Shown here in pieces: positions 2,179 through 58,954 of a DNA stretch of 64,000 nucleotides; positions within the stretch are counted from its first letter, which is position 1; each line of letters begins with the position of its first letter. A program made the position numbers and the translations under genes. The notes under the pieces were generated by a model. That model was not told the origin of the DNA and did no database searches. It worked only from the letters and a program-made list of their open reading frames with translations. This stretch comes from Acidimicrobiaceae bacterium (GTDB lineage Bacteria > Actinomycetota > Acidimicrobiia > Acidimicrobiales > Aldehydirespiratoraceae), in assembly GCA_009843735.1 (NCBI GenBank), contig VYCW01000051.1, forward strand, positions 7,964 to 71,963, given 5' to 3'.

Positions 2179-3246
2179 ATGCTGGAGCGGATAGCCGGGC
2201 TCGAAGACGAGCTCAGAGACGTGGAGATCCGCCTCGGCGACCCCGCGGTGCAGTCCGACCAGCGCCAACTGGCCGAGCTGGGTCGCCGTCACAAGCAGCT
2301 GAGCGAGATCGTGGCGGTGGGGGAGCGTCTGCGGGCCGCGATCGAGGACCTCGACGAGGCCCGCCGGATGCACTCCGCGGCCGACGCCTCAGAGCGGGCC
2401 GAGCTGCGGGAGATGATCGACGAGCTCGAGGCCGCCGTGGACACGGCCACCGACGAGCTGCGGGTGCTGCTGTTGCCGCCCGACCCCAACGAGGGCCGCA
2501 ACGTGATCGTCGAGATAAGGGGCGCGGCCGGCGGCGAGGAGGCCAACCTCTTCGCCCGCGACCTGTTCGACATGTACCAGGCCTTCGCCCGCAGGCAGCG
2601 CTGGAAGCTGGAGCCGCTGGCCGCCTCGCCGTCGGACCTCGGCGGCTATACCGAGGTCAGCGGCCTGATCTCCGGCGACCAGGTGTGGACCCGCATGAAG
2701 CACGAGGCCGGCACCCACCGGGTGCAGCGGGTACCGGTGACCGAATCGCAGGGCCGGGTCCACACGTCGTCGGCCACCGTGTCGGTGCTGCCCGAGGCCA
2801 AGGAGGTGGACGTGCAGATCGACGAGGCCGACCTGCAGATCGACGTCTACCGCTCGTCGGGTCCCGGCGGCCAGTCGGTCAACACCACCGACTCGGCGGT
2901 GCGGGTCACCCATGTGCCGAGCGGCATGGTGGTGTCGATGCAGGACGAGAAGAGCCAGCTCCAGAACAAGCAGAAGGCACTGCGGGTGCTGCGTTCGAGG
3001 CTGCTGCAGGCCGAGCAGGAGCGGGCCTCGGCCGAGCAGTCGGCGATGCGACGGGGCCAGGTGGGCGGTGGCGACCGGTCCGAAAAGATCCGCACCTACA
3101 ACATGCGGGAGAACCGGGTCACCGACCACCGAATCGGGCTCACCCTCTACAAGCTCGAGCGGGTGCTGGCCGGCGAACTCGACGAGCTGAGCGACGCGCT
3201 CGTGCAGGACGAGCAGCGCACGCTGCTGGCCGGCGACGACGCCTGA
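2179..3246 (+). CDS. prfA: Peptide chain release factor 1
   Basis: 355 aa. It has the GGQ motif (SSGPGGQSVNTTDSAVRVTHVPSG) and an RF1-type P-x-T tripeptide region (RVPVTESQGRVHTSSATV). Confidence 0.95.
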   Translation: MLERIAGLEDELRDVEIRLGDPAVQSDQRQLAELGRRHKQLSEIVAVGERLRAAIEDLDEARRMHSAADASERAELREMIDELEAAVDTATDELRVLLLPPDPNEGRNVIVEIRGAAGGEEANLFARDLFDMYQAFARRQRWKLEPLAASPSDLGGYTEVSGLISGDQVWTRMKHEAGTHRVQRVPVTESQGRVHTSSATVSVLPEAKEVDVQIDEADLQIDVYRSSGPGGQSVNTTDSAVRVTHVPSGMVVSMQDEKSQLQNKQKALRVLRSRLLQAEQERASAEQSAMRRGQVGGGDRSEKIRTYNMRENRVTDHRIGLTLYKLERVLAGELDELSDALVQDEQRTLLAGDDA

Positions 3247-24019: not shown

Positions 24020-25357
24020 TCAGCCGAGAGCCTCGAACTCCGAGAAGTCGATCGGCGCCAATCCGACGTCCTTCATCGAAGTGCCGTCGACCTCGAGCAC
24101 TATCAGGCTCGATACGCACGCACCGGGGAACGGGTCGGGTCCTGGACAGGAGACGTCGGCGTAGTAGCCGGTCGTGAGCTGTACCCGGCTCAGCGCCTCG
24201 TTGACCGTCTCGCGGGAGAGATTCTCGTATCCCACGTCAACCAGCGCGGCGTGGACACCGAGGACAGACACGAGGGCCCAGCCGGCGAGACCGTAGACCT
24301 CAGCTTCTTCGGATCCGTAGGTTTCGATGATCCGCTGACCCTCGAGGACCGCATCGCTGGCCAGGGACGGGTCGACCGGCAGGGCGCTGGCTCCGAACAC
24401 AAGCCACCCGTCCAGGGCGCCACTCGCCACCGTGTCCTCGAGAGCACAAGTGTCGAAGGTGATGATGGCCGTTTCGACCGACAGTGACGACAGCGCATCG
24501 GCTAGCGGCGAGCACTGGGTGCCGTCTATAGCGGCCATCACGACGTCGACGTCGGCCGCTCCCGAGGCGGTGACCACACCGACGTAGTCGGCCTGTTCGA
24601 AGGCTGCAGGCGTGATGCCGGTTACTTCCAGGCCAGCATTCTCTGCGAAGACGCTGGCTGCGTCGCAGGCCTCCAGGAAGAAGGGGTCGTCGAGGCAGAT
24701 GATCGCCATGGTGCCAGCGCCAATGGTGTCGGCCGCATAGGCCACGGGTCCCTGTACCAATCCCAGGAAGCCGGGATCGAAGATCCATTCGGTCGGTCGC
24801 TGCCAGTCGTCGGGCAGGTTGGCCAGTGCCAGCTGCGGCAGACCGGCCGGGACGGTGACCTCCGCAGCCTCGTTGCTCGAGTAGCTGCTGGTGATCATCA
24901 CGTGGATGTCGTCGTCGTTGGCGAACTGCTGGGCGCATGCCACCGCGCCTTCGGGACCGTCACCGGAAGTGCAGAGCTCAAGCTCCAACGGGTGCCCGTC
25001 CACTCCACCGAGCTCCGCGTTTATGTACGCAACCGCAGCTTCGGCAGCCCTGCGGGCTTCGATGATCGAGAAGAGCTCCTCCTCCTGGGAGTCGAATCCG
25101 ATTCTGACCGGGTCCATAGCAGTGTCGTCCGGCTCTGGTGCCTCCTCTGGTGCGGCGGTTGTTGCCGGTGCGGCAGTCGTCGCCGGTGCGGCGGTTGTTG
25201 CCGGTGCCTCCGCTTCGGGCGCGTCGTCATCCCCGCAGGAGGCGGCAACCAGCGCGAACACCCCGAACAGGCCAGCGAGCAGCCGAACCCCTCTCGCCGA
25301 GATCGGACTTCTGCCGGTCTCTGTTCGTGTGGTTGCCTCGCCCCGCTGCCGGTTCAT
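24020..25357 (-). CDS. Lipoprotein substrate-binding protein (type I periplasmic-binding fold, Liv/amide family)
   Basis: The start was trimmed to MNRQRG (ATG 25357-25355). The signal and lipobox are LLAGLFGVFALVAASCG, followed by a low-complexity linker with 3x PATTAA and then a PBP1-like domain. Confidence 0.8.
   Translation of the reverse strand: MNRQRGEATTRTETGRSPISARGVRLLAGLFGVFALVAASCGDDDAPEAEAPATTAAPATTAAPATTAAPEEAPEPDDTAMDPVRIGFDSQEEELFSIIEARRAAEAAVAYINAELGGVDGHPLELELCTSGDGPEGAVACAQQFANDDDIHVMITSSYSSNEAAEVTVPAGLPQLALANLPDDWQRPTEWIFDPGFLGLVQGPVAYAADTIGAGTMAIICLDDPFFLEACDAASVFAENAGLEVTGITPAAFEQADYVGVVTASGAADVDVVMAAIDGTQCSPLADALSSLSVETAIITFDTCALEDTVASGALDGWLVFGASALPVDPSLASDAVLEGQRIIETYGSEEAEVYGLAGWALVSVLGVHAALVDVGYENLSRETVNEALSRVQLTTGYYADVSCPGPDPFPGACVSSLIVLEVDGTSMKDVGLAPIDFSEFEALG
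25149..25202 (-). repeat. 3 x 18-bp in-frame tandem repeat encoding (APATTA)3 in the SBP linker
   Basis: The plus-strand units are ggtgcggcggttgttgcc / ggtgcggcagtcgtcgcc / ggtgcggcggttgttgcc. Units 1 and 3 are identical, and unit 2 differs only synonymously. Confidence 0.9.
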
Positions 25358-25387
25358 GACTGCTCCCATCTCCGATTCCGAAATTTT

Positions 25388-25405
25388 TTCGTTCGACTGA
25401 ATGAA
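25388..25405. promoter_or_regulatory. Candidate TetR operator (imperfect palindrome) in the divergent SBP/TetR intergenic region
   Basis: TTCGTTC-GACT-GAATGAA has half-sites matching 6/7 as an inverted repeat. It lies in the 77-bp AT-richer gap between divergent starts 25357 and 25435. Confidence 0.3.
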
Positions 25406-25434
25406 TTGGGCGAGGTTATGCTTACCGCCCATCC

Positions 25435-26118
25435 ATGTCAAACGACAGCCTTGGTTCCCCCGTTAGGCGGGTCGGCCGTCCCCGTGCCGACAAACGCGTC
25501 CCCGAAGGCGACGTCTCCGAGCACATCCTCGCGGCGTCAGCCGAACTGTTCATCCGCCAGGGCTACACGGCTACCACCACCCGCCAGATAGCGGCTGCGG
25601 TCGGCTTGCGGCAGGGGTCGTTGAGCCACTACTTCCCGCGGAAGAAGGACATTTTCGCAGAACTGCTCGACCGTACGGTTGAACCCGCGCTGACGATGAT
25701 CGACGGACTCGATCCAGGGTTGCCGCCCGAGGTCCGGCTGTGGCTCCTGCTGTCGACCGACTGCTTCAATCTGGCGTCGGGTGAGCAGAACCTGGCCAGT
25801 CTCATGCTGCTCCCCGAAGCACGAAGTGATGAGTTCGACCAGTTCTGGGCTAGGCGCGACCAACTCAAGGATCGGTATCGGGACATCATCGTGGCGGGCT
25901 TGAGGCACGGGTCCCTGTCTTGTAGCGATGTTCTTCTAGCCGTTGACGCCACCTTCGGGATCGTCGAGAGCATCATCACCTGGTTCGAGCGGGGCGGGCC
26001 GGTGACGTCTCGCGGCGCTGTCCATCACGTCGCGCGAGCCGCACTGGCTGCGCTATTGACGTCGCCGTCTGAAGTGGATCGGGTAATCGCTCAGGCCGAA
26101 GCGCTGGTGGCAGCATGA
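25435..26118 (+). CDS. TetR/AcrR-family transcriptional regulator
   Basis: The N-terminal HTH is FIRQGYTATTTRQIAAAVGLRQGSLSHYFPRKKDIF. It is divergent from the ABC/enzyme operon. Confidence 0.9.
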   Translation: MSNDSLGSPVRRVGRPRADKRVPEGDVSEHILAASAELFIRQGYTATTTRQIAAAVGLRQGSLSHYFPRKKDIFAELLDRTVEPALTMIDGLDPGLPPEVRLWLLLSTDCFNLASGEQNLASLMLLPEARSDEFDQFWARRDQLKDRYRDIIVAGLRHGSLSCSDVLLAVDATFGIVESIITWFERGGPVTSRGAVHHVARAALAALLTSPSEVDRVIAQAEALVAA

Positions 26119-44892: not shown

Positions 44893-44944
44893 GAACATCG
44901 GTTCCCTATCAACACTTGGAACACTGGTTCCCTACCAACACAAG
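44893..44944 (+). repeat. 2 x 26-bp tandem repeat immediately upstream of the ilvC ribosome-binding site
   Basis: The units are GAACATCGGTTCCCTATCAACACTTG and GAACACTGGTTCCCTACCAACACAAG, 21/26 identical. Each starts with an inverted GAAC-N4-GTTC, and the second ends in the AAGGAGAGG RBS. Confidence 0.85.
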
Positions 44945-44955
44945 GAGAGGCTCTC

Positions 44956-45987
44956 GTGGCGAACATCTACTACGAGCAGGACGTGGACCGCTCGGCCATC
45001 GCCGGCCGCAAGGTGGCCGTGCTCGGCTACGGATCCCAGGGCCATTCGCACGCCCTCAACCTGAAGGACTCGGGCATCGACGTGCGGGTGGGCCTGCGCG
45101 ACGGTTCCTCGTCGGCCGCCAAGGCCCGGGAGGCCGGGCTGGAGGTCCGCTCGATCGCCGACGCCGTGGCTGAGGCCGATGTGACGATGATGCTCATGCC
45201 CGACACCGAGATGGGCGCCATTTACGCCGAGCACGTCGAGCCGAACCTCGAGCCGGGCGGGGCGCTGTTCTTCGCCCACGGCTTCAACATCCGCTTCGGG
45301 CTGATCTCGCCGCCGGAGTCGGTGGACGTGTGCATGGTGGCCCCCAAGGGGCCCGGCCACCTCGTGCGGCGCACCTACGTCGAGGGCGGCGGGGTGCCGT
45401 GCCTGGTGGCGATAGAGCAGGACGCCTCCGGTGGCGCGTTGGCCCTCGCGCTGGCCTATGCCGACGCCATTGGTGGGGCCCGGGCCGGGGTAATCGAGAC
45501 CACCTTCACCGAGGAGACCGAGACCGACCTGTTCGGCGAGCAGGCCGTGTTGTGCGGGGGCACCACCGCTCTGGTGCAGGCCGCCTTCGAGACGCTGGTC
45601 GACGCCGGCTACCAGCCCGAGATCTGCTACTTCGAGTGCCTGCACGAGTTGAAGCTGATCGTGGACCTCATGTACGAGGAGGGCATCGCCGGGATGCGCT
45701 ACTCGGTGTCGGACACCGCCGAGTACGGCGACCTGACCCGAGGTCCCCGCATCGTCAACGACGCGGTGCGGGCCGAGATGCAGCGCATCCTGGCCGAGGT
45801 GCAGGACGGCTCCTTCGCCGAGGAGTGGGTGGCCGAGAGCCGCGGCGGCCGGGCCAACTTCCTGCGCCTGGAGGCGGCCGGCCACGACCACCCGGTCGAG
45901 ATCGTGGGCAAGGAGCTCCGGGCCATGATGCCGTGGATCTCAGCAGGCAAAGCGTCAGTGAAGGAGACTTCGGGTGGCCAGGGCTAA
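44956..45987 (+). CDS. ilvC: Ketol-acid reductoisomerase
   Basis: The start was trimmed to GTG 44956, which is preceded by the AAGGAGAGG RBS. The N-terminus reads [39 protein letters not shown]. Confidence 0.95.
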
Positions 45988-54841: not shown

Positions 54842-56071
54842 GTGATCGGCGATGCGGTGCTGGACGGCCTGCGGGTGGTCGAGGGCTCGGCGTTCGTGGC
54901 CGCGCCCTCGGGAGGTATGGCGCTGGCCCAGCTGGGAGCCGAAGTGGTGCGCTTCGACCGGATCGGCGGGGGCATCGACTACGGGCGGTGGCCGCTCACG
55001 GCGGAGGGCCGCTCGCTGTACTGGGCGGGATTGAACAAGGGCAAGAAGTCGGTGGCCGTCAACCTGCGCGATCCGGCCGCCCAGGAGCTGCTCTCCGAGC
55101 TGATCGGTGCGGCCGGCACCTTTCTCACCAACTTCCCGGCCCAGGGGTGGATGGCCCCCGAGAGGCTGACGGCCCGGCGGGCCGATCTGGTGATGGTGGC
55201 GATCACCGGCAACCGGGACGGGACCACCGCGGTGGACTACACCGTCAACGCCGCGGTCGGGTTCCCGATGGTGACCGGCCCCGCGGACCTCGACGGCCCG
55301 GTCAACAGCGTGCTGCCCGCCTGGGACCTGCTGTGCGGGCAGACGGCTGCCGTCGGGATCCTGGCCGCGGAGCGGCGCCGGCTGCTGACGGGGGATGGGT
55401 CGGTGATGATGCTGGCGTTGAGCGATGTGGCCCTGGCGGCCACGGCCGCGCTGGGCTATGTCGCGGAGGTCCAGGTCAACGGCGCGATCCGGCCTCGCGG
55501 TGGCAACGACCTCTACGGCGCGTTCGGGGTGGAGTTGTCCACCGCGGACGAGCGCCGCCTGTACGCGGTGGGCATCAGCGGCCGGCAGTGGGCGTCACTG
55601 CTGGAGGCCACCGGGAGCGAGGCCGCGGTCGCCGGGATCGCCTCGGCCCGGGGCCTCGACTTCACCGACGAGGGCGACCGTTACGAGGCCCGCCACGAGA
55701 TCAAGGCGGTGATGCAGGACTGGGCCGGCGCACGGTCCTTCGCCGAAGCGGCCGAGCGCTTGGACGCGCTCGGCGTCTGCTGGGGGCCCTACCAGACCTT
55801 CGCGGAGCTGGTCGAGAACGACCCGCGCTGCTCGCCTGCTGCCGGACTGTTCCGTGAGGTGGACCAGTCCGGCATCGGCCCCTATCTGGTGCCGGGGTCG
55901 CCGCTGGCGTTCGCGCCAGGCCCGGGGACGGGAACCGATGCGCTCGGCGACGCCGCGACCGCGCCCGTGCTGGGGCAGCACACCGACGAGGTGCTGGCCG
56001 GATGGCTGGGACTGTCGGCTCGTGAGATCGGCCGCCTGCACGACGCCGGCGTGGTCGCAGGCGGGAGCTAG
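54842..56071 (+). CDS. Family III CoA-transferase (CaiB/BaiF)
   Basis: 409 aa with LDGLRVVEGSAFVAAPSGGMALAQLGAEVVRFD. The start is a GTG at 54842. Confidence 0.8.
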   Translation: MIGDAVLDGLRVVEGSAFVAAPSGGMALAQLGAEVVRFDRIGGGIDYGRWPLTAEGRSLYWAGLNKGKKSVAVNLRDPAAQELLSELIGAAGTFLTNFPAQGWMAPERLTARRADLVMVAITGNRDGTTAVDYTVNAAVGFPMVTGPADLDGPVNSVLPAWDLLCGQTAAVGILAAERRRLLTGDGSVMMLALSDVALAATAALGYVAEVQVNGAIRPRGGNDLYGAFGVELSTADERRLYAVGISGRQWASLLEATGSEAAVAGIASARGLDFTDEGDRYEARHEIKAVMQDWAGARSFAEAAERLDALGVCWGPYQTFAELVENDPRCSPAAGLFREVDQSGIGPYLVPGSPLAFAPGPGTGTDALGDAATAPVLGQHTDEVLAGWLGLSAREIGRLHDAGVVAGGS

Positions 56072-56189
56072 ATGGGGCATGGCTCAGAATTGTCAGAGTT
56101 ATTGAAGATCGCAGTTTGTGAAATATAGGACGCGCCAATATATGGGTCCTGACCTGCCCCTTTTCCTAAAGCAAATATTCGCCTTGCAC

Positions 56190-56224
56190 AATTGTATACC
56201 GATGCTAAATTGTATACCGATGCT
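56190..56224 (+). repeat. Perfect 17-bp direct repeat (18-bp period) spanning the whiB-like start region
   Basis: AATTGTATACCGATGCT occurs at 56190-56206 and again at 56208-56224, separated by a single A. Each copy carries an in-frame ATG (56202 and 56220) and the palindrome GTATAC. The repeat lies within a roughly 150-bp low-GC stretch (about 40-45% GC by eye). Confidence 0.9.
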
Positions 56225-56558
56225 CGAGGTGTACGAGACGGCCGTAGCCCCGGTGGGCTCCACGGCCTGGATGGAGCAGGGGCGCTGTGTGGGCGAGAGC
56301 GACCTGTTCTTCGCTCCGTTCGCCGAGCGGCCCGAGGCCCGGGTCCGCCGCGAGGCTCGGGCCCGGTCGATCTGCGAGCAGTGCATGGTGCTGGCGGCGT
56401 GCCGGGACTATGCCCGAAGGAACCGCGAGCTCGGCTTCTGGGGAGGCGAGAGCGAGTCGGAGCGGGCCGAAGCCGGATTCGCTCCCACCACGCCGATCGT
56501 TGGCCGCAAGCGTGTCGCGGAGGAGCGCGCCCTCGACGCCATGCGCCGAGTCCGCTGA
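56220..56558 (+). CDS. WhiB-family Fe-S transcription factor
   Basis: The Cys pattern is C-x28-C-x2-C-x5-C (GRCVGESDLFF...SICEQCMVLAACRDYA), followed by GFWGG. The start is ambiguous between ATG 56220, ATG 56202 (in the repeat) and the track's 56118. Confidence 0.85.
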   Translation: MLEVYETAVAPVGSTAWMEQGRCVGESDLFFAPFAERPEARVRREARARSICEQCMVLAACRDYARRNRELGFWGGESESERAEAGFAPTTPIVGRKRVAEERALDAMRRVR

Positions 56559-56563
56559 CAGCG

Positions 56564-56616
56564 CCGACCCCTCTCACAAGTCGAACGACCGCTGGCGCGG
56601 GGTCGTCGCTGTGTTT
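56564..56616 (+). terminator. Weak candidate terminator after the whiB-like gene
   Basis: CGACCCC (56564-70) pairs with GGGGTCG (56598-604) across a large loop, and is followed by TGTGTTTTA. This is low confidence. Confidence 0.2.
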
Positions 56617-56689
56617 TACGTTCTCTGCTGCCCTTGCTACCGTCCGAGCCGGCGGTGCCAGGGAGGTGCCCGCGACCAAGGAAGTCTGA

Positions 56690-58954
56690 ATGGGCCACAC
56701 GCTTCGGCGCGCCGCCATGTCATGCCTGCTGCTGCGGAGGCGTGCCGCGGCACGGATCGCGGCCGCCCCGGTCGCGTTGGCGATCCTCGCGGCATTGCTG
56801 GCGCCGGGAGCGGCCGCCCAGACCGCCGGGATCTCGATTCCCGACGCGGGCCTTCGCAGCGCCATCGAGAGCGCCCTCGGTAGGCAGCCCGGCGATGCGA
56901 TCACCGAGGGCGACATGGCGCTGGTCGGCGTCCTGGACGCCGGCTACGCGGGAATCACGAACCTCGATGGCCTGCAGCACGCGGTCAACCTGCGTGCCCT
57001 GTACCTGCAGGGCAACAGCATCTCGGATGCCTCGAGCCTCGCGGGTCTGGCTCGCATGCAGGTGCTCCTCCTTCACGGCAACGACATCGCCGACATCGAT
57101 CTGACCGCCATGACCGATCTGAGGTTCGTCGACCTCAGCTACAACGACCTGACGACCATCGATCTCTCCGGTCAGAGAACCACGGTCGGGGAGAACGCTC
57201 GAAGCAGCATGCTGTACGCGCTGTGGCTCAACAACAATCGCCTGACGTCGGTCGACGTCTCGGGCCTGACTGCGCTGAGGGACCGGCCCGACGGCACGTC
57301 CCACCCCAACTATGTGAGCCTGCGGCTTGACCGCAACCAGCTGACGAGCGTCACCGGGCTCGCCGACCTCCCGCGCCAGGTCTGGAGCCTGAGACTCGAG
57401 CACAACCAGCTGACCTCTGTCGATCTACGGGGCGCGGAGCACGTCCACTACCTGTACCTCAACGACAACCCGATCTCGAACGCGTCCCAGCTCGATGGCT
57501 TCACGTCCCTGACCGACCTGCGGAGGCTTCACTTCTACGGCACCGACATCTCGGCCATCGACCTGTCCCGGTTCTCCCGGCTGGAGCGGGCCTTCCTCAA
57601 CGACAACCGGCTGGCCTCGGTCGATGTGACCGGACTGGACAGCATCCAGCGGCTGTGGCTGAGAGGGAACCGCATCACCGAGGTCACCGGGTTGCGGGAC
57701 ATCGGCGACACCCTCATCTCGCTCAACCTGAGAACCAACCGCCTGTCGTCGATCGACTTGTCGGGGCTGTCCGGCCTCCGCCAGCTCTACCTGAGCGACA
57801 ACCAGCTCACCTCGGTGGACTTGAGTCCCGTGACCGATTTGGGCGTCCTGTGGCTCGACAACGGCTCGACTTCTGCTGGGAGCACGCCCGACCCCGCCTA
57901 CCGGAACCAGATCACGACGCTCGCCCACCTGCCCCGCTTCCTCACCGATCTCAGGCTGAGCGGCAATCCCCTAGACGCGCCGGTCTCGGTGTCGTCCAGG
58001 ACGGGCCTCCGGAAGCTGCATGTCAGCGGCACCCAGATCACCGGCCTGTCCGAGGTGGCCGGTCTCACCGGCCTGACCGAGCTGGGGCTGACCAGCATGG
58101 GCCTGAACGGTTCGGACCTGTCGGAGCTGTCCGGGCTGGGGGCGCTGGAGAAGCTCGACCTGAGGGACAACACGATCACGGACCTGTCGGCTCTGGCCCC
58201 CTTGGTCCGCTTGACCGAGATCCGGCTCGACGGCAACTTCGTCGGCGACGTCTCGCCGCTGGCGAGCATGGGCGGTCTCCGGGATCTGTACGTGGCCGGC
58301 AACCTCATCAGGGACTTCGCGCCGCTGCGCGACCTGATCGTGGCGGGGTTGACGATCCACGGTGGCGACCGGCAGCGGGGAGACTCGCCCGACAGCTTCT
58401 TCTGGGATCTGGACGCCGCGGGCTCGATCCACGGTTGGAACCTGAGCCGGCTGGCCGCGGACGGGGTGCTGGACAACACCGAGTGCGGGCTCGACCTCAT
58501 CTGCCCCAGACTGGCAATCGAGCGCTGGGTCTTAGCCATCTGGCTCGTGCGGGTGCTCGACGGCCGCGATCCCGAGCCGCTCGGCTTCAACCGGTTCGAG
58601 GATGTGCATCCGGGCCTGCAGTGGGCCGCGCACGTCGAGCGTCTCGCCGAACTGGGCGTAGCGTCCGGCTGTTCGGTCGAGCCGGCCCGGTTCTGCCCCC
58701 AGGCGCCGGTGACGAGGGCAGAGATGGCAACCCTGCTCGCTCGGGCCTTCAACCTGGAGTCGGACACGCCCGCCGGGTTCGTCGACGTCGACCCGCAGAG
58801 CGCGCACGCGGCCAGCATCGACGCCATCGCGGCGGCCGGCATCGCCGGGGGCTGCGGAGCCGGACCCGATCGGTACTGCCCCGACGACTTCGTGACGCGG
58901 GGCCAAGCGGCCACCTTCATCGCCACCGCTAGAGACCACGCCAGCGGCAGTTAA
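56690..58954 (+). CDS. Secreted leucine-rich-repeat (internalin-like) protein with three C-terminal SLH-like cell-wall anchoring repeats
   Basis: The signal peptide is ...LAILAALLAPGAAAQ. About 20 LRRs of roughly 22 aa follow (LRALYLQGNSISDASSLAGL, LRFVDLSYNDLTTIDLSG, LRQLYLSDNQLTSVDLSP ...). The C-terminus has 3 repeats of the GC-x5/6-(F/Y/I)CP-x3-VTR-x-(E/Q)-xA type. Confidence 0.8.
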   Translation: MGHTLRRAAMSCLLLRRRAAARIAAAPVALAILAALLAPGAAAQTAGISIPDAGLRSAIESALGRQPGDAITEGDMALVGVLDAGYAGITNLDGLQHAVNLRALYLQGNSISDASSLAGLARMQVLLLHGNDIADIDLTAMTDLRFVDLSYNDLTTIDLSGQRTTVGENARSSMLYALWLNNNRLTSVDVSGLTALRDRPDGTSHPNYVSLRLDRNQLTSVTGLADLPRQVWSLRLEHNQLTSVDLRGAEHVHYLYLNDNPISNASQLDGFTSLTDLRRLHFYGTDISAIDLSRFSRLERAFLNDNRLASVDVTGLDSIQRLWLRGNRITEVTGLRDIGDTLISLNLRTNRLSSIDLSGLSGLRQLYLSDNQLTSVDLSPVTDLGVLWLDNGSTSAGSTPDPAYRNQITTLAHLPRFLTDLRLSGNPLDAPVSVSSRTGLRKLHVSGTQITGLSEVAGLTGLTELGLTSMGLNGSDLSELSGLGALEKLDLRDNTITDLSALAPLVRLTEIRLDGNFVGDVSPLASMGGLRDLYVAGNLIRDFAPLRDLIVAGLTIHGGDRQRGDSPDSFFWDLDAAGSIHGWNLSRLAADGVLDNTECGLDLICPRLAIERWVLAIWLVRVLDGRDPEPLGFNRFEDVHPGLQWAAHVERLAELGVASGCSVEPARFCPQAPVTRAEMATLLARAFNLESDTPAGFVDVDPQSAHAASIDAIAAAGIAGGCGAGPDRYCPDDFVTRGQAATFIATARDHASGS

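Follow-up and report, generated by a model that had tools for sequence, protein, structure and literature searches.

The window analysed here is a 64,000-nucleotide stretch of contig VYCW01000051.1 from an Acidimicrobiaceae bacterium, and the element in question is a short tandem repeat directly upstream of a gene for a WhiB-like (Wbl) regulator, referred to below as whiB. The open reading frame (ORF) of this gene (56220-56558, Pfam Whib match, 4.5e-12) follows an ORF for a family III CoA-transferase (54842-56071), which ends at 56071. The interval between them, 56072-56219, has a GC content of 0.432. The window as a whole has a mean GC of 0.697 (standard deviation 0.047 for 100 nt and 0.042 for 150 nt), and its minima at both scales (0.41 over 100 nt, 0.42 over 150 nt) fall within this interval, which agrees with a first-pass annotation of the sequence that had singled out an AT-rich intergenic stretch here (about 40-45% GC in its estimate). 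The sequence of 56180-56240 reads cgccTTGCACAATTGTATACCGATGCTAAATTGTATACCGATGCTCGAGG. Within it the 17-mer AATTGTATACCGATGCT is found twice (56190-56206 and 56208-56224), with a lone A at 56207 between the copies and hence a period of 18. Each copy contains GTATAC and one ATG, and the two ATGs (56202 and 56220) are 18 nt apart in the same frame. Tandem Repeats Finder (TRF) reports the repeat with period 18, 1.9 copies, 100% match and a score of 70, the third highest among the 63 TRF rows of the window and the sole AT-rich array there. The perfect repeat, its period, the in-frame ATGs and the GTATAC that the first-pass annotation had described are thus confirmed by both the sequence and TRF. 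A search for further copies of the 17-mer, which had also been proposed, returned just the known pair in the 64 kb when up to three mismatches were allowed, against 0.02 matches expected from shuffled sequence.

Orthologous loci were collected by scanning one genome per Genome Taxonomy Database (GTDB) species, which gave 80 loci; one more, L081, was added separately. The Wbl protein has hundreds of close homologues. All but four of the 80 loci are titled as Acidimicrobiia lineages (two are titled only as Actinomycetota, and two bear other binning labels, Gammaproteobacteria and Verrucomicrobiales). The closest loci are either titled 'Candidatus Aldehydirespirator' or come from series of metagenome-assembled genomes that we take to derive from sponge metagenomes. 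The sole paper found to name the genus 'Ca. Aldehydirespirator' has sponge-associated Actinobacteriota as its subject. The motif is borne by 35 of the 80 loci, plus L081; the other 45 loci, all out of the genus, lack it. Two ATTGTATAC copies stand directly before the start codon in 32 of the 80 loci and in L081. Of these 33 relatives with the tandem layout, 31 repeat the site every 18 bp and two (L003 and L015) every 19 bp, and the copy number is exactly two in every case, never one or three. A polymorphic, slippage-type (phase-variable) repeat was rejected on account of this constant copy number.

Thirty-three distinct species-level sequences of the genus 'Ca. Aldehydirespirator' (the window and 32 relatives; hereafter the anchored sequences) were aligned on ATG 56220. 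Positions -10 to +5 relative to this ATG (TTGTATACCGATGCT) are invariant in all 33, and two 1-nt indels are the sole changes in the first copy of the site (O1, below). The sequences vary freely at third codon positions downstream and in the DNA before about -38. The alignment indicates that the promoter-repeat module is conserved far above neutral, and the comparison places the twin sites in at least 34 related uncultured Acidimicrobiia species. This does not sit with the strain-specific or recent duplication that the first-pass annotation had considered; it had named absence from close relatives with no difference in expression as a sign against function, and the pair is present across these species. 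The heptamer TGTATAC is found nowhere else in the window, nor in the roughly 6 kb around each of the 35 motif-bearing loci, and it has zero occurrences in the 45 out-of-genus loci.

The two in-frame ATGs had been taken as alternative starts, giving N-termini that differ by the residues MLNCIP. However, position -18, at which an A creates the upstream ATG, is A in only 8 of the 33 anchored sequences and C (giving CTG) in 22. In L081 a GTG start lies one base nearer the repeat, so that the repeats are in another frame (LYT...LYT, not NCIP...NCIP); conservation therefore acts at the level of DNA. The codons of the putative extension (cta-aat-tgt-ata) have AT-rich third positions, and the GC content at third positions (GC3) of called ORFs here is 0.80-0.94. 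From ATG 56220 onwards substitutions are mostly at third positions, and the N-termini are colinear across the 80 orthologues, distant ones included. On this comparison ATG 56220 is the conserved start and ATG 56202 is incidental and unused; the proposal of two N-termini is not supported, in view of the count at -18, the different frame in L081 and the codon usage. Database orthologues of 118, 123, 124 and 139 amino acids (aa) are over-extended through the repeats, the conserved length being 112 aa. In P0002, P0003, P0009, P0013 and P0023 the gene callers added 6 to 27 residues in this way; such N-termini read MLDCIRM..., MHNCIPLLDCIPM... or MELYTAAKLYTV..., and the conserved start is the M or V of MLE, MLD or VLD.

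Genus-wide, the DNA before the start forms a conserved module: cTTGCnn (-35), a 16-nt spacer, TGn-TAnnTT (extended -10), GTATACCG and ATG. Within the -10 hexamer the anchored sequences have T and A at -14 and -13 in 32 of 33 cases and T at both -10 and -9 in all 33, with the middle positions (-12 and -11) varying among A, G and T. The TG at -17 and -16 is present in 27 and 29 of the 33, respectively. Fixed T-A and T-T around a variable middle are the signature of the actinobacterial TANNNT -10 element. In Mycobacterium tuberculosis TANNNT precedes 73% of primary transcription start sites (TSSs), there is no consensus -35, and TGN is linked to the strongest promoters (PMC3898074).

No Shine-Dalgarno (SD) sequence is found in the 8 nt before ATG 56220. 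As a calibration for leaderless starts, TANNNT was counted at gaps of 0-20 nt before in-frame ATG or GTG codons of GC3-supported ORFs. Among the 56 such ORFs of the window, gaps of 6, 7 and 8 nt occur 3, 9 and 3 times, against about 0.7 per other gap, and the pooled set has the same peak. Fifteen of the 56 (e.g. those starting at 54842, 2179, 28311 and 14116) thus have TANNNT 6-8 nt before ATG or GTG, with no room for an SD; the neighbouring CoA-transferase is one, with TAGCTT 7 nt before the GTG at 54842. The genome appears to be rich in leaderless genes. The gap is 8 at whiB and 7 in L081, and by our own count from the sequences it is also 7 in L029 and L069. Because of these 15 ORFs and the lack of an SD at whiB, we infer that the whiB mRNA is leaderless, with a TSS predicted at 56219-56220. 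The arrangement resembles actinobacterial leaderless sigma-A promoters in having TGn-TANNNT 7-8 nt from an ATG or GTG without an SD, but differs in that the whiB discriminator is AT-rich and invariant and would double as a putative operator (PMC3898074). Orthologues outside the genus instead keep long conserved stretches (100 nt or more) before the gene, with a GGAGG-like SD in one of their groups, so the leaderless layout is a trait of this genus.

Two positions of this promoter are occupied by the conserved site ATTGTATAC(C/A)G, one copy (O1) lying in the spacer and a second (O2) before the start codon (Table 1). O1 is found in all 35 motif-bearing loci and in L081, always 5 nt upstream of the -10, with a single core mismatch (L029); its core is TGTATACA in 8 of the 33 anchored sequences. 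O2 is invariant in all 33. In three more divergent motif-bearing loci (L029, L060 and L069) O2 is absent, and the second copy lies instead 24 bp upstream of O1, adjoining the -35. In these loci the TAGATT hexamer and O1 keep their places, the discriminators (gagagcg, gctggttc) are unrelated, and the sites are extended palindromes, GGCTGTATACAGCC and GTTGTATACAAC; L029 and L060 contain a perfect palindrome of 12-14 bp. Such turnover of the second copy is what one expects of sites bound by a protein; neither coding sequence nor promoter hexamers behave in this way. Neither spacer nor discriminator needs a specific sequence for promoter function. Moreover, the discriminators of the window's remaining leaderless candidates are rich in GC and unrelated in sequence, so the conservation of the AT-rich gtataccg at whiB reflects no general promoter requirement. 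Given the fixed sequence, the tendency to dyad symmetry and the change of position around fixed hexamers, the motif is best explained as a binding site for a sequence-specific and probably dimeric protein.

Table 1. Positions of the features predicted at and around the whiB promoter, numbered within the window.
Feature	Position	Strand	Remarks
AT-rich intergenic stretch	56072..56183	+	CoA-transferase stop to core promoter; outside the genus-wide module
Upstream block AATTGTCAGAG	56088..56098	+	about 103 bp (about 10 helical turns) upstream of O1; AATTGT common to the operators
-35-like hexamer TTGCAC	56184..56189	+	cTTGC genus-wide; 16 nt from the -10
Putative operator O1, ATTGTATACCG	56191..56201		core TGTATACC at 56193-56200; centre -23.5, in the -35/-10 spacer
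Upstream in-frame ATG	56202..56204	+	created by the A at 56202; not conserved as a start
Extended -10, TGC-TAAATT	56203..56211	+	TGn + TANNNT; hexamer 56206-56211
Putative operator O2, ATTGTATACCG	56209..56219		core TGTATACC at 56211-56218; centre -5.5, in the discriminator
WhiB3/WhiD-class Wbl gene, 112 aa	56220..56558	+	Pfam Whib; best PDB match WhiB3
Weak terminator-like hairpin and T-run	56593..56618	+	stem of 5 bp; seen only by the consensus scan, which gave 1 where 0.5 is expected

The layout also accounts for the 17-bp identity of the copies. Past the 11-bp site, copy 1 runs into (C/A)TGCT and copy 2 into ATGCT; in copy 1, TGCT consists of the TGn and the T that opens the -10 hexamer, and in copy 2, ATGCT is Met-Leu. 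The match is perfect here because of a C-to-A change at 56202 that is common to 8 of the 33 species, and is to this extent a species-level detail. An ancient 18-bp duplication is a possible origin of the repeat, given that TGC is met again with this period at 56185, 56203 and 56221.

Taken together, the two 17-mers are probably two operators of a repressor-controlled promoter for a leaderless whiB mRNA. Transcription by sigma-A RNA polymerase would begin with the A of ATG 56220 or with the base that precedes it. A dimeric, sequence-specific helix-turn-helix (HTH) protein, not encoded nearby, would bind TGTATAC(A/C) at both sites and block polymerase binding or open-complex formation, and the WhiB3/WhiD-class iron-sulphur (Fe-S) regulator would be kept off until a signal releases the repressor. 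A protein sitting on sites with centres of -23.5 and -5.5, or on either side of the -35, should keep RNA polymerase off the promoter, which implies repression. The first-pass annotation had offered a pair of direct-repeat binding sites overlapping the translation start as an alternative to the two N-termini; it survives in modified form, the copies being conserved DNA elements that flank the gene's own -10 as two putative operators.

Several points weigh against this interpretation. Repression is preferred to activation with position as the sole basis. Most sites carry the core TGTATACC, in which 7 of 8 positions are palindromic, with asymmetric flanks (ATT-GTATAC-CG), and the 18-bp and 24-bp spacings are not in helical phase, giving no support for a rigid tetramer. 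The promoter is itself a prediction from comparative data: a consensus sigma-70 scan of 55900-56750 called none, since the -35 fits the consensus at only 3 of 6 positions, and the call rests on the comparison between species. Conservation of the hexamers is imperfect, as L081 has GAAATT for a -10 and the TTG of its -35 has moved by 2 nt. Lastly, neither the surrounding DNA (about 10 kb) nor the syntenic loci yielded a gene for a cognate regulator. Pfam searches of 10 flanking ORFs gave only metabolic enzymes, ferritin, AhpC and similar; synteny clustering of the 36 loci added only a VapBC-like pair and a transposase; and a scan of small ORFs gave no HTH candidate. MerR-type activation, which needs a spacer of 19-20 nt, was also considered for the spacer site and was rejected, the spacer being 16-17 nt.

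Literature searches with the strings TGTATACA and TTGTATACA found no actinobacterial regulator with this site, and yielded GntR/VanR, OhrR and HsmR precedents; the operator papers cited here should be taken as leads, not tests. BldO is a single-target repressor with an AATT-centred site over the -10 and TSS of Streptomyces whiB (PMC5485038). As here, BldO-whiB of Streptomyces venezuelae combines a wbl promoter with an AT-rich, AATT-containing operator overlapping the -10 and TSS (PMC5485038). BldO appears to have no target other than that operator, and in the roughly 280 kb examined here TGTATAC is likewise confined to the wbl promoter. In contrast, the gene there is of the WhiB/WhiB2 class with TGxAATTxCA as its site, and here a WhiB3/WhiD-like gene is paired with TGTATAC(A/C), with two discrete sites and a leaderless start; no homologue of BldO was found, though no search was aimed at one. 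Atu1419 (GntR/VanR) of Agrobacterium fabrum represses through ATGTATACAT palindromes lying over the -10 or between the -35 and -10, in which the G is essential (PMC7797058). It shares with whiB the 8-bp core TGTATACA and two sites per regulated region, and represses by occupancy (PMC7797058). However, it belongs to another phylum, its sites are 109-190 bp apart with tetramer looping (18 or 24 bp here), most sites here have TGTATACC (7/8) instead, and there is no GntR gene nearby. The OhrR-ohrA operator of Bacillus subtilis (MarR family), TACAATTAAATTGTATACAATTAAATTGTA, contains AAATTGTATACAATT (PMC2651793), which nearly equals O2 plus its left flank (TAAATTGTATACC). A redox-responsive repressor of this kind would suit a redox-sensing Wbl target. 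Its half-sites, though, are TACAATT/AATTGTA inverted about AA, whereas GTATAC forms the middle of the part conserved throughout the genus here, and many species, with GGGGATTG, have lost the symmetry about AATT.

The twin TGTATAC sites could be the target of a dedicated single-target repressor of a WhiB3-class gene in sponge-associated Acidimicrobiia, making an analogue of BldO-whiB that arose independently, or, less likely, could be read sequence-specifically by Wbl itself, with the second site relocated during evolution in both cases; in this specific form we consider the idea rather improbable. The site could have left a place before the -35 for one after the -10, or moved the other way, perhaps through an 18-bp duplication that also shaped the extended -10 of a leaderless promoter. 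In a separate metagenome scan for ATTGTATAC-N9-ATTGTATAC there were at least 120 matches (L082-L201), with no high-GC whiB promoter among the matches listed; they lie on unrelated low-GC contigs in 9- or 18-bp satellite-like arrays, two of which (L097 and L099) have at least 12 matches each.

The Pfam PF02467 match of the Wbl protein scores 46.8 bits, and the translation has the four cysteines of a Wbl domain (C23, C52, C55 and C61) and, as GFWGG, its G[VIF]WGG turn. In a PDB search it matched WhiB3 of M. tuberculosis (3e-14), WhiB1 (1.7e-5), Streptomyces WhiB (8dy9, 2.8e-5) and WhiB4 (9e-3), and WhiB7 chains were absent from the matches at E<=0.01. NCBIfam did not assign the protein to any family. 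A phmmer alignment sets its ERPEAR against ERGRAR of WhiB3, keeping both invariant arginines with E at the variable R40; R38 and R42 of M. tuberculosis WhiB3 are the invariant residues of the Arg-rich motif of this subclass (PMC10245118). These matches assign the protein to the WhiB3/WhiD class and not to WhiB7. Its C-terminus reads ...IVGRKRVAEERALDAMRRVR (...TTPIVGRKRVAEERALDAMRRVR), and the basic patch without an RGRP AT-hook noted earlier is indeed there (IVGRKRVAE). This tail is equally conserved in the 45 out-of-genus orthologues without TGTATAC, which argues against the tail reading these sites.

The first-pass annotation had gone on to an analogy with WhiB7-type autoregulation, with the AT-rich promoter as a WhiB7-like trait. 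WhiB7 genes have a long 5' leader with an upstream ORF (uORF) or attenuator, and their -35 is immediately preceded by an AT-rich tract that is conserved. The whiB locus resembles such autoregulated WhiB7/WblC promoters in having AT-rich DNA upstream of a wbl gene, but it has no AT-hook, long leader, uORF or attenuator, and the -10 is only 7-8 nt from the start. Nor is its AT tract upstream of the -35 conserved in the genus, being confined to about eight close relatives. Neither part of the analogy is therefore upheld, the best match being WhiB3.

Other explanations for the repeat differ in what would bind it, or in whether anything does. The copies could be head-to-tail direct repeats coated over about 36 bp, as repressor or activator, by a BldC-like small MerR-type protein (9-bp units, 18 being 2 x 9) or by a response regulator. 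In nearly all species the asymmetric flanks of one copy (ATT...CCG-N-TGCT) are repeated in the other, and the TGC that recurs at 56185, 56203 and 56221 carries the periodicity further. BldC binds 9-bp repeats, AATTXXXX(C), cooperatively and head-to-tail at developmental genes (PMC5859096), and the upstream block GAATTGTCnGAG resembles the optimised whiI BldC site TGTCCGAATTGTCCGAATTG. However, the 24-bp spacing in L029, L060 and L069 is no multiple of 9 and their sites are perfect extended palindromes, the unit AATTGTATA-CCGATGCTA has A rather than C at position 9, and 19 of 33 O1 sites have G in place of the A that begins AATT. The sequences that follow the two sites moreover have separate explanations, the extended -10 for TGCT in copy 1 and Met-Leu for ATGCT in copy 2, and no BldC-like ORF was found in the window, so that we regard coated direct repeats as unlikely. 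Control of the promoter by the Wbl protein itself, either in the manner of WhiB7 (basic tail beside sigma-A region 4) or as an apo-protein autorepressor, seems very unlikely. Apo-WhiB1 reportedly binds and represses its own promoter. The basic tail IVGRKRVAE is conserved, and the Arg-rich DNA-contact motif of the WhiB3 subclass is kept as ERPEAR (PMC10245118). Against this, there is neither an RGRP AT-hook nor a WhiB7 match, a Wbl protein bound to sigma region 4 contacts DNA at or upstream of the -35 and the sites here are at -23.5 and -5.5 (PMC10245118), DNA binding by WhiB3 is reported to be of low specificity (PMC10245118), and tail and operator are not co-distributed, as the 45 out-of-genus orthologues without TGTATAC show.

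It is also conceivable that the repeat acts in RNA, from an upstream transcript start, with the AUUGUAUACCG copies forming a structure or binding a translation factor. GUAUAC is self-complementary, so the copies could pair with each other; copy 2 can also pair with 56227-56235, leaving the AUG in a loop; and in L016-L027 the gene begins only about 65 nt after the CoA-transferase stop, which makes read-through conceivable. The folding evidence goes the other way, with single-sequence z-scores of -1.5 and -1.0 (not significant), zero consensus pairs by RNAalifold across 19 species, and no Rfam match at E<=1 over 55800-56800. Furthermore, three species have the second copy on the other side of the -10, and the distance of TAnnTT from the start is constant at 7-8 nt, both of which fit the logic of a DNA promoter; a role in RNA is accordingly judged highly improbable. 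Least credible of all is a recent tandem duplication with a duplicated start (isoforms with and without MLNCIP) or a neutral slippage product. The copies are identical over 17 bp here with both ATGs in frame, and gene callers did use upstream starts in relatives (P0002, 124 aa; P0003, 118 aa), but a two-copy layout in at least 34 species is not recent, ATG 56202 is present in 8 of 33, the frame differs in L081, the extension has AT-rich third positions, and no relative has one or three tandem copies.

If the two sites are operators, the locus offers a precise and testable cis-regulatory map, consisting of a -35, an extended -10, two predicted operators and the leaderless start of a WhiB3/WhiD-class gene, in a lineage of uncultured sponge-associated Acidimicrobiia where nothing is known about gene control. 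The comparison corrects the start codons of over-extended orthologues (112 aa instead of 118-139) and shows operator turnover around a fixed promoter, and its 11-bp site could serve directly as bait in a search for the regulator. Since the design is conceptually of the standard repressor-operator type, a familiar kind with a new example in an unstudied lineage, its wider significance is modest.

The roughly 110 bp upstream of the promoter behave differently from the module. Conserved blocks are shared by just seven close relatives (L001, L002, L003, L005, L006, L008 and L010), among them AATTGTCnGAG (56088-56098), GATCGCnGTTTG and CTGACCTG. Most members of the genus have GC-rich DNA before the -35, and in L016-L027 only about 25 nt separate the -35 from the CoA-transferase stop. 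This distribution indicates that the AT-rich stretch is a clade-specific addition and not part of the core mechanism, although it perhaps holds auxiliary sites. In the 8-sequence alignment the block at 56088-56098 has invariant A29, A30, T32, G33, T34, C35, G37, A38 and G39, even where the left flanks differ; its reading as an auxiliary half-site is speculative. The block AATTGTCAGAG also resembles the BldC whiI site GAATTGTCCGAATTG. A Rex operator at TTGTGAA (56115-56121) was rejected by eye, the second half-site being absent.

Out-of-genus Wbl orthologues (L031, L035, L040-L043 etc., at about 2880-3000; L061-L080, at about 2880-3040) have long, strongly conserved upstream regions without the twin operator. 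One group has ...GGTTTCCTAAGTTGAAAC...GGGGCACC...AAGCGGGTG, and another ...GGCAAGAGTGGAGTAGAGGG...CCTGCCCTC.GAGGGAC, with an SD. These regions may contain structured or regulatory elements of their own.

Elsewhere in the window a direct repeat, AACATCGGTTCCCTATCAACAC / AACACTGGTTCCCTACCAACAC (44894-44915 and 44920-44941, period 26), is found in low-GC intergenic DNA just upstream of AAGGAGAGG and a GTG start at 44956; a regulator may have a pair of sites there too. An 18-bp tandem array of GGTGCGGCGGTTGTTGCC (25149-25207, 3.3 copies, TRF score 97) adjoins the second-lowest-GC stretch of the window (25342-25474, 0.43-0.47). Downstream of whiB, a protein with leucine-rich repeat (LRR) and S-layer homology (SLH) domains (56690-58954) is encoded in about a third of the syntenic loci (cf. 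L015-L027); in many others whiB is followed directly by a convergent gene for a zinc-dependent alcohol dehydrogenase (zinc-ADH). The LRR and SLH protein looks like an inserted eukaryote-like repeat protein, a type common in sponge symbionts. A VapBC-type toxin-antitoxin look-alike pair lies downstream of whiB in L012 (3511-4172) and is also present in L013. In L007 an ORF that we read from its translation as transposase-like (1214-2536) replaces the usual upstream neighbour, and the twin-operator promoter is intact.

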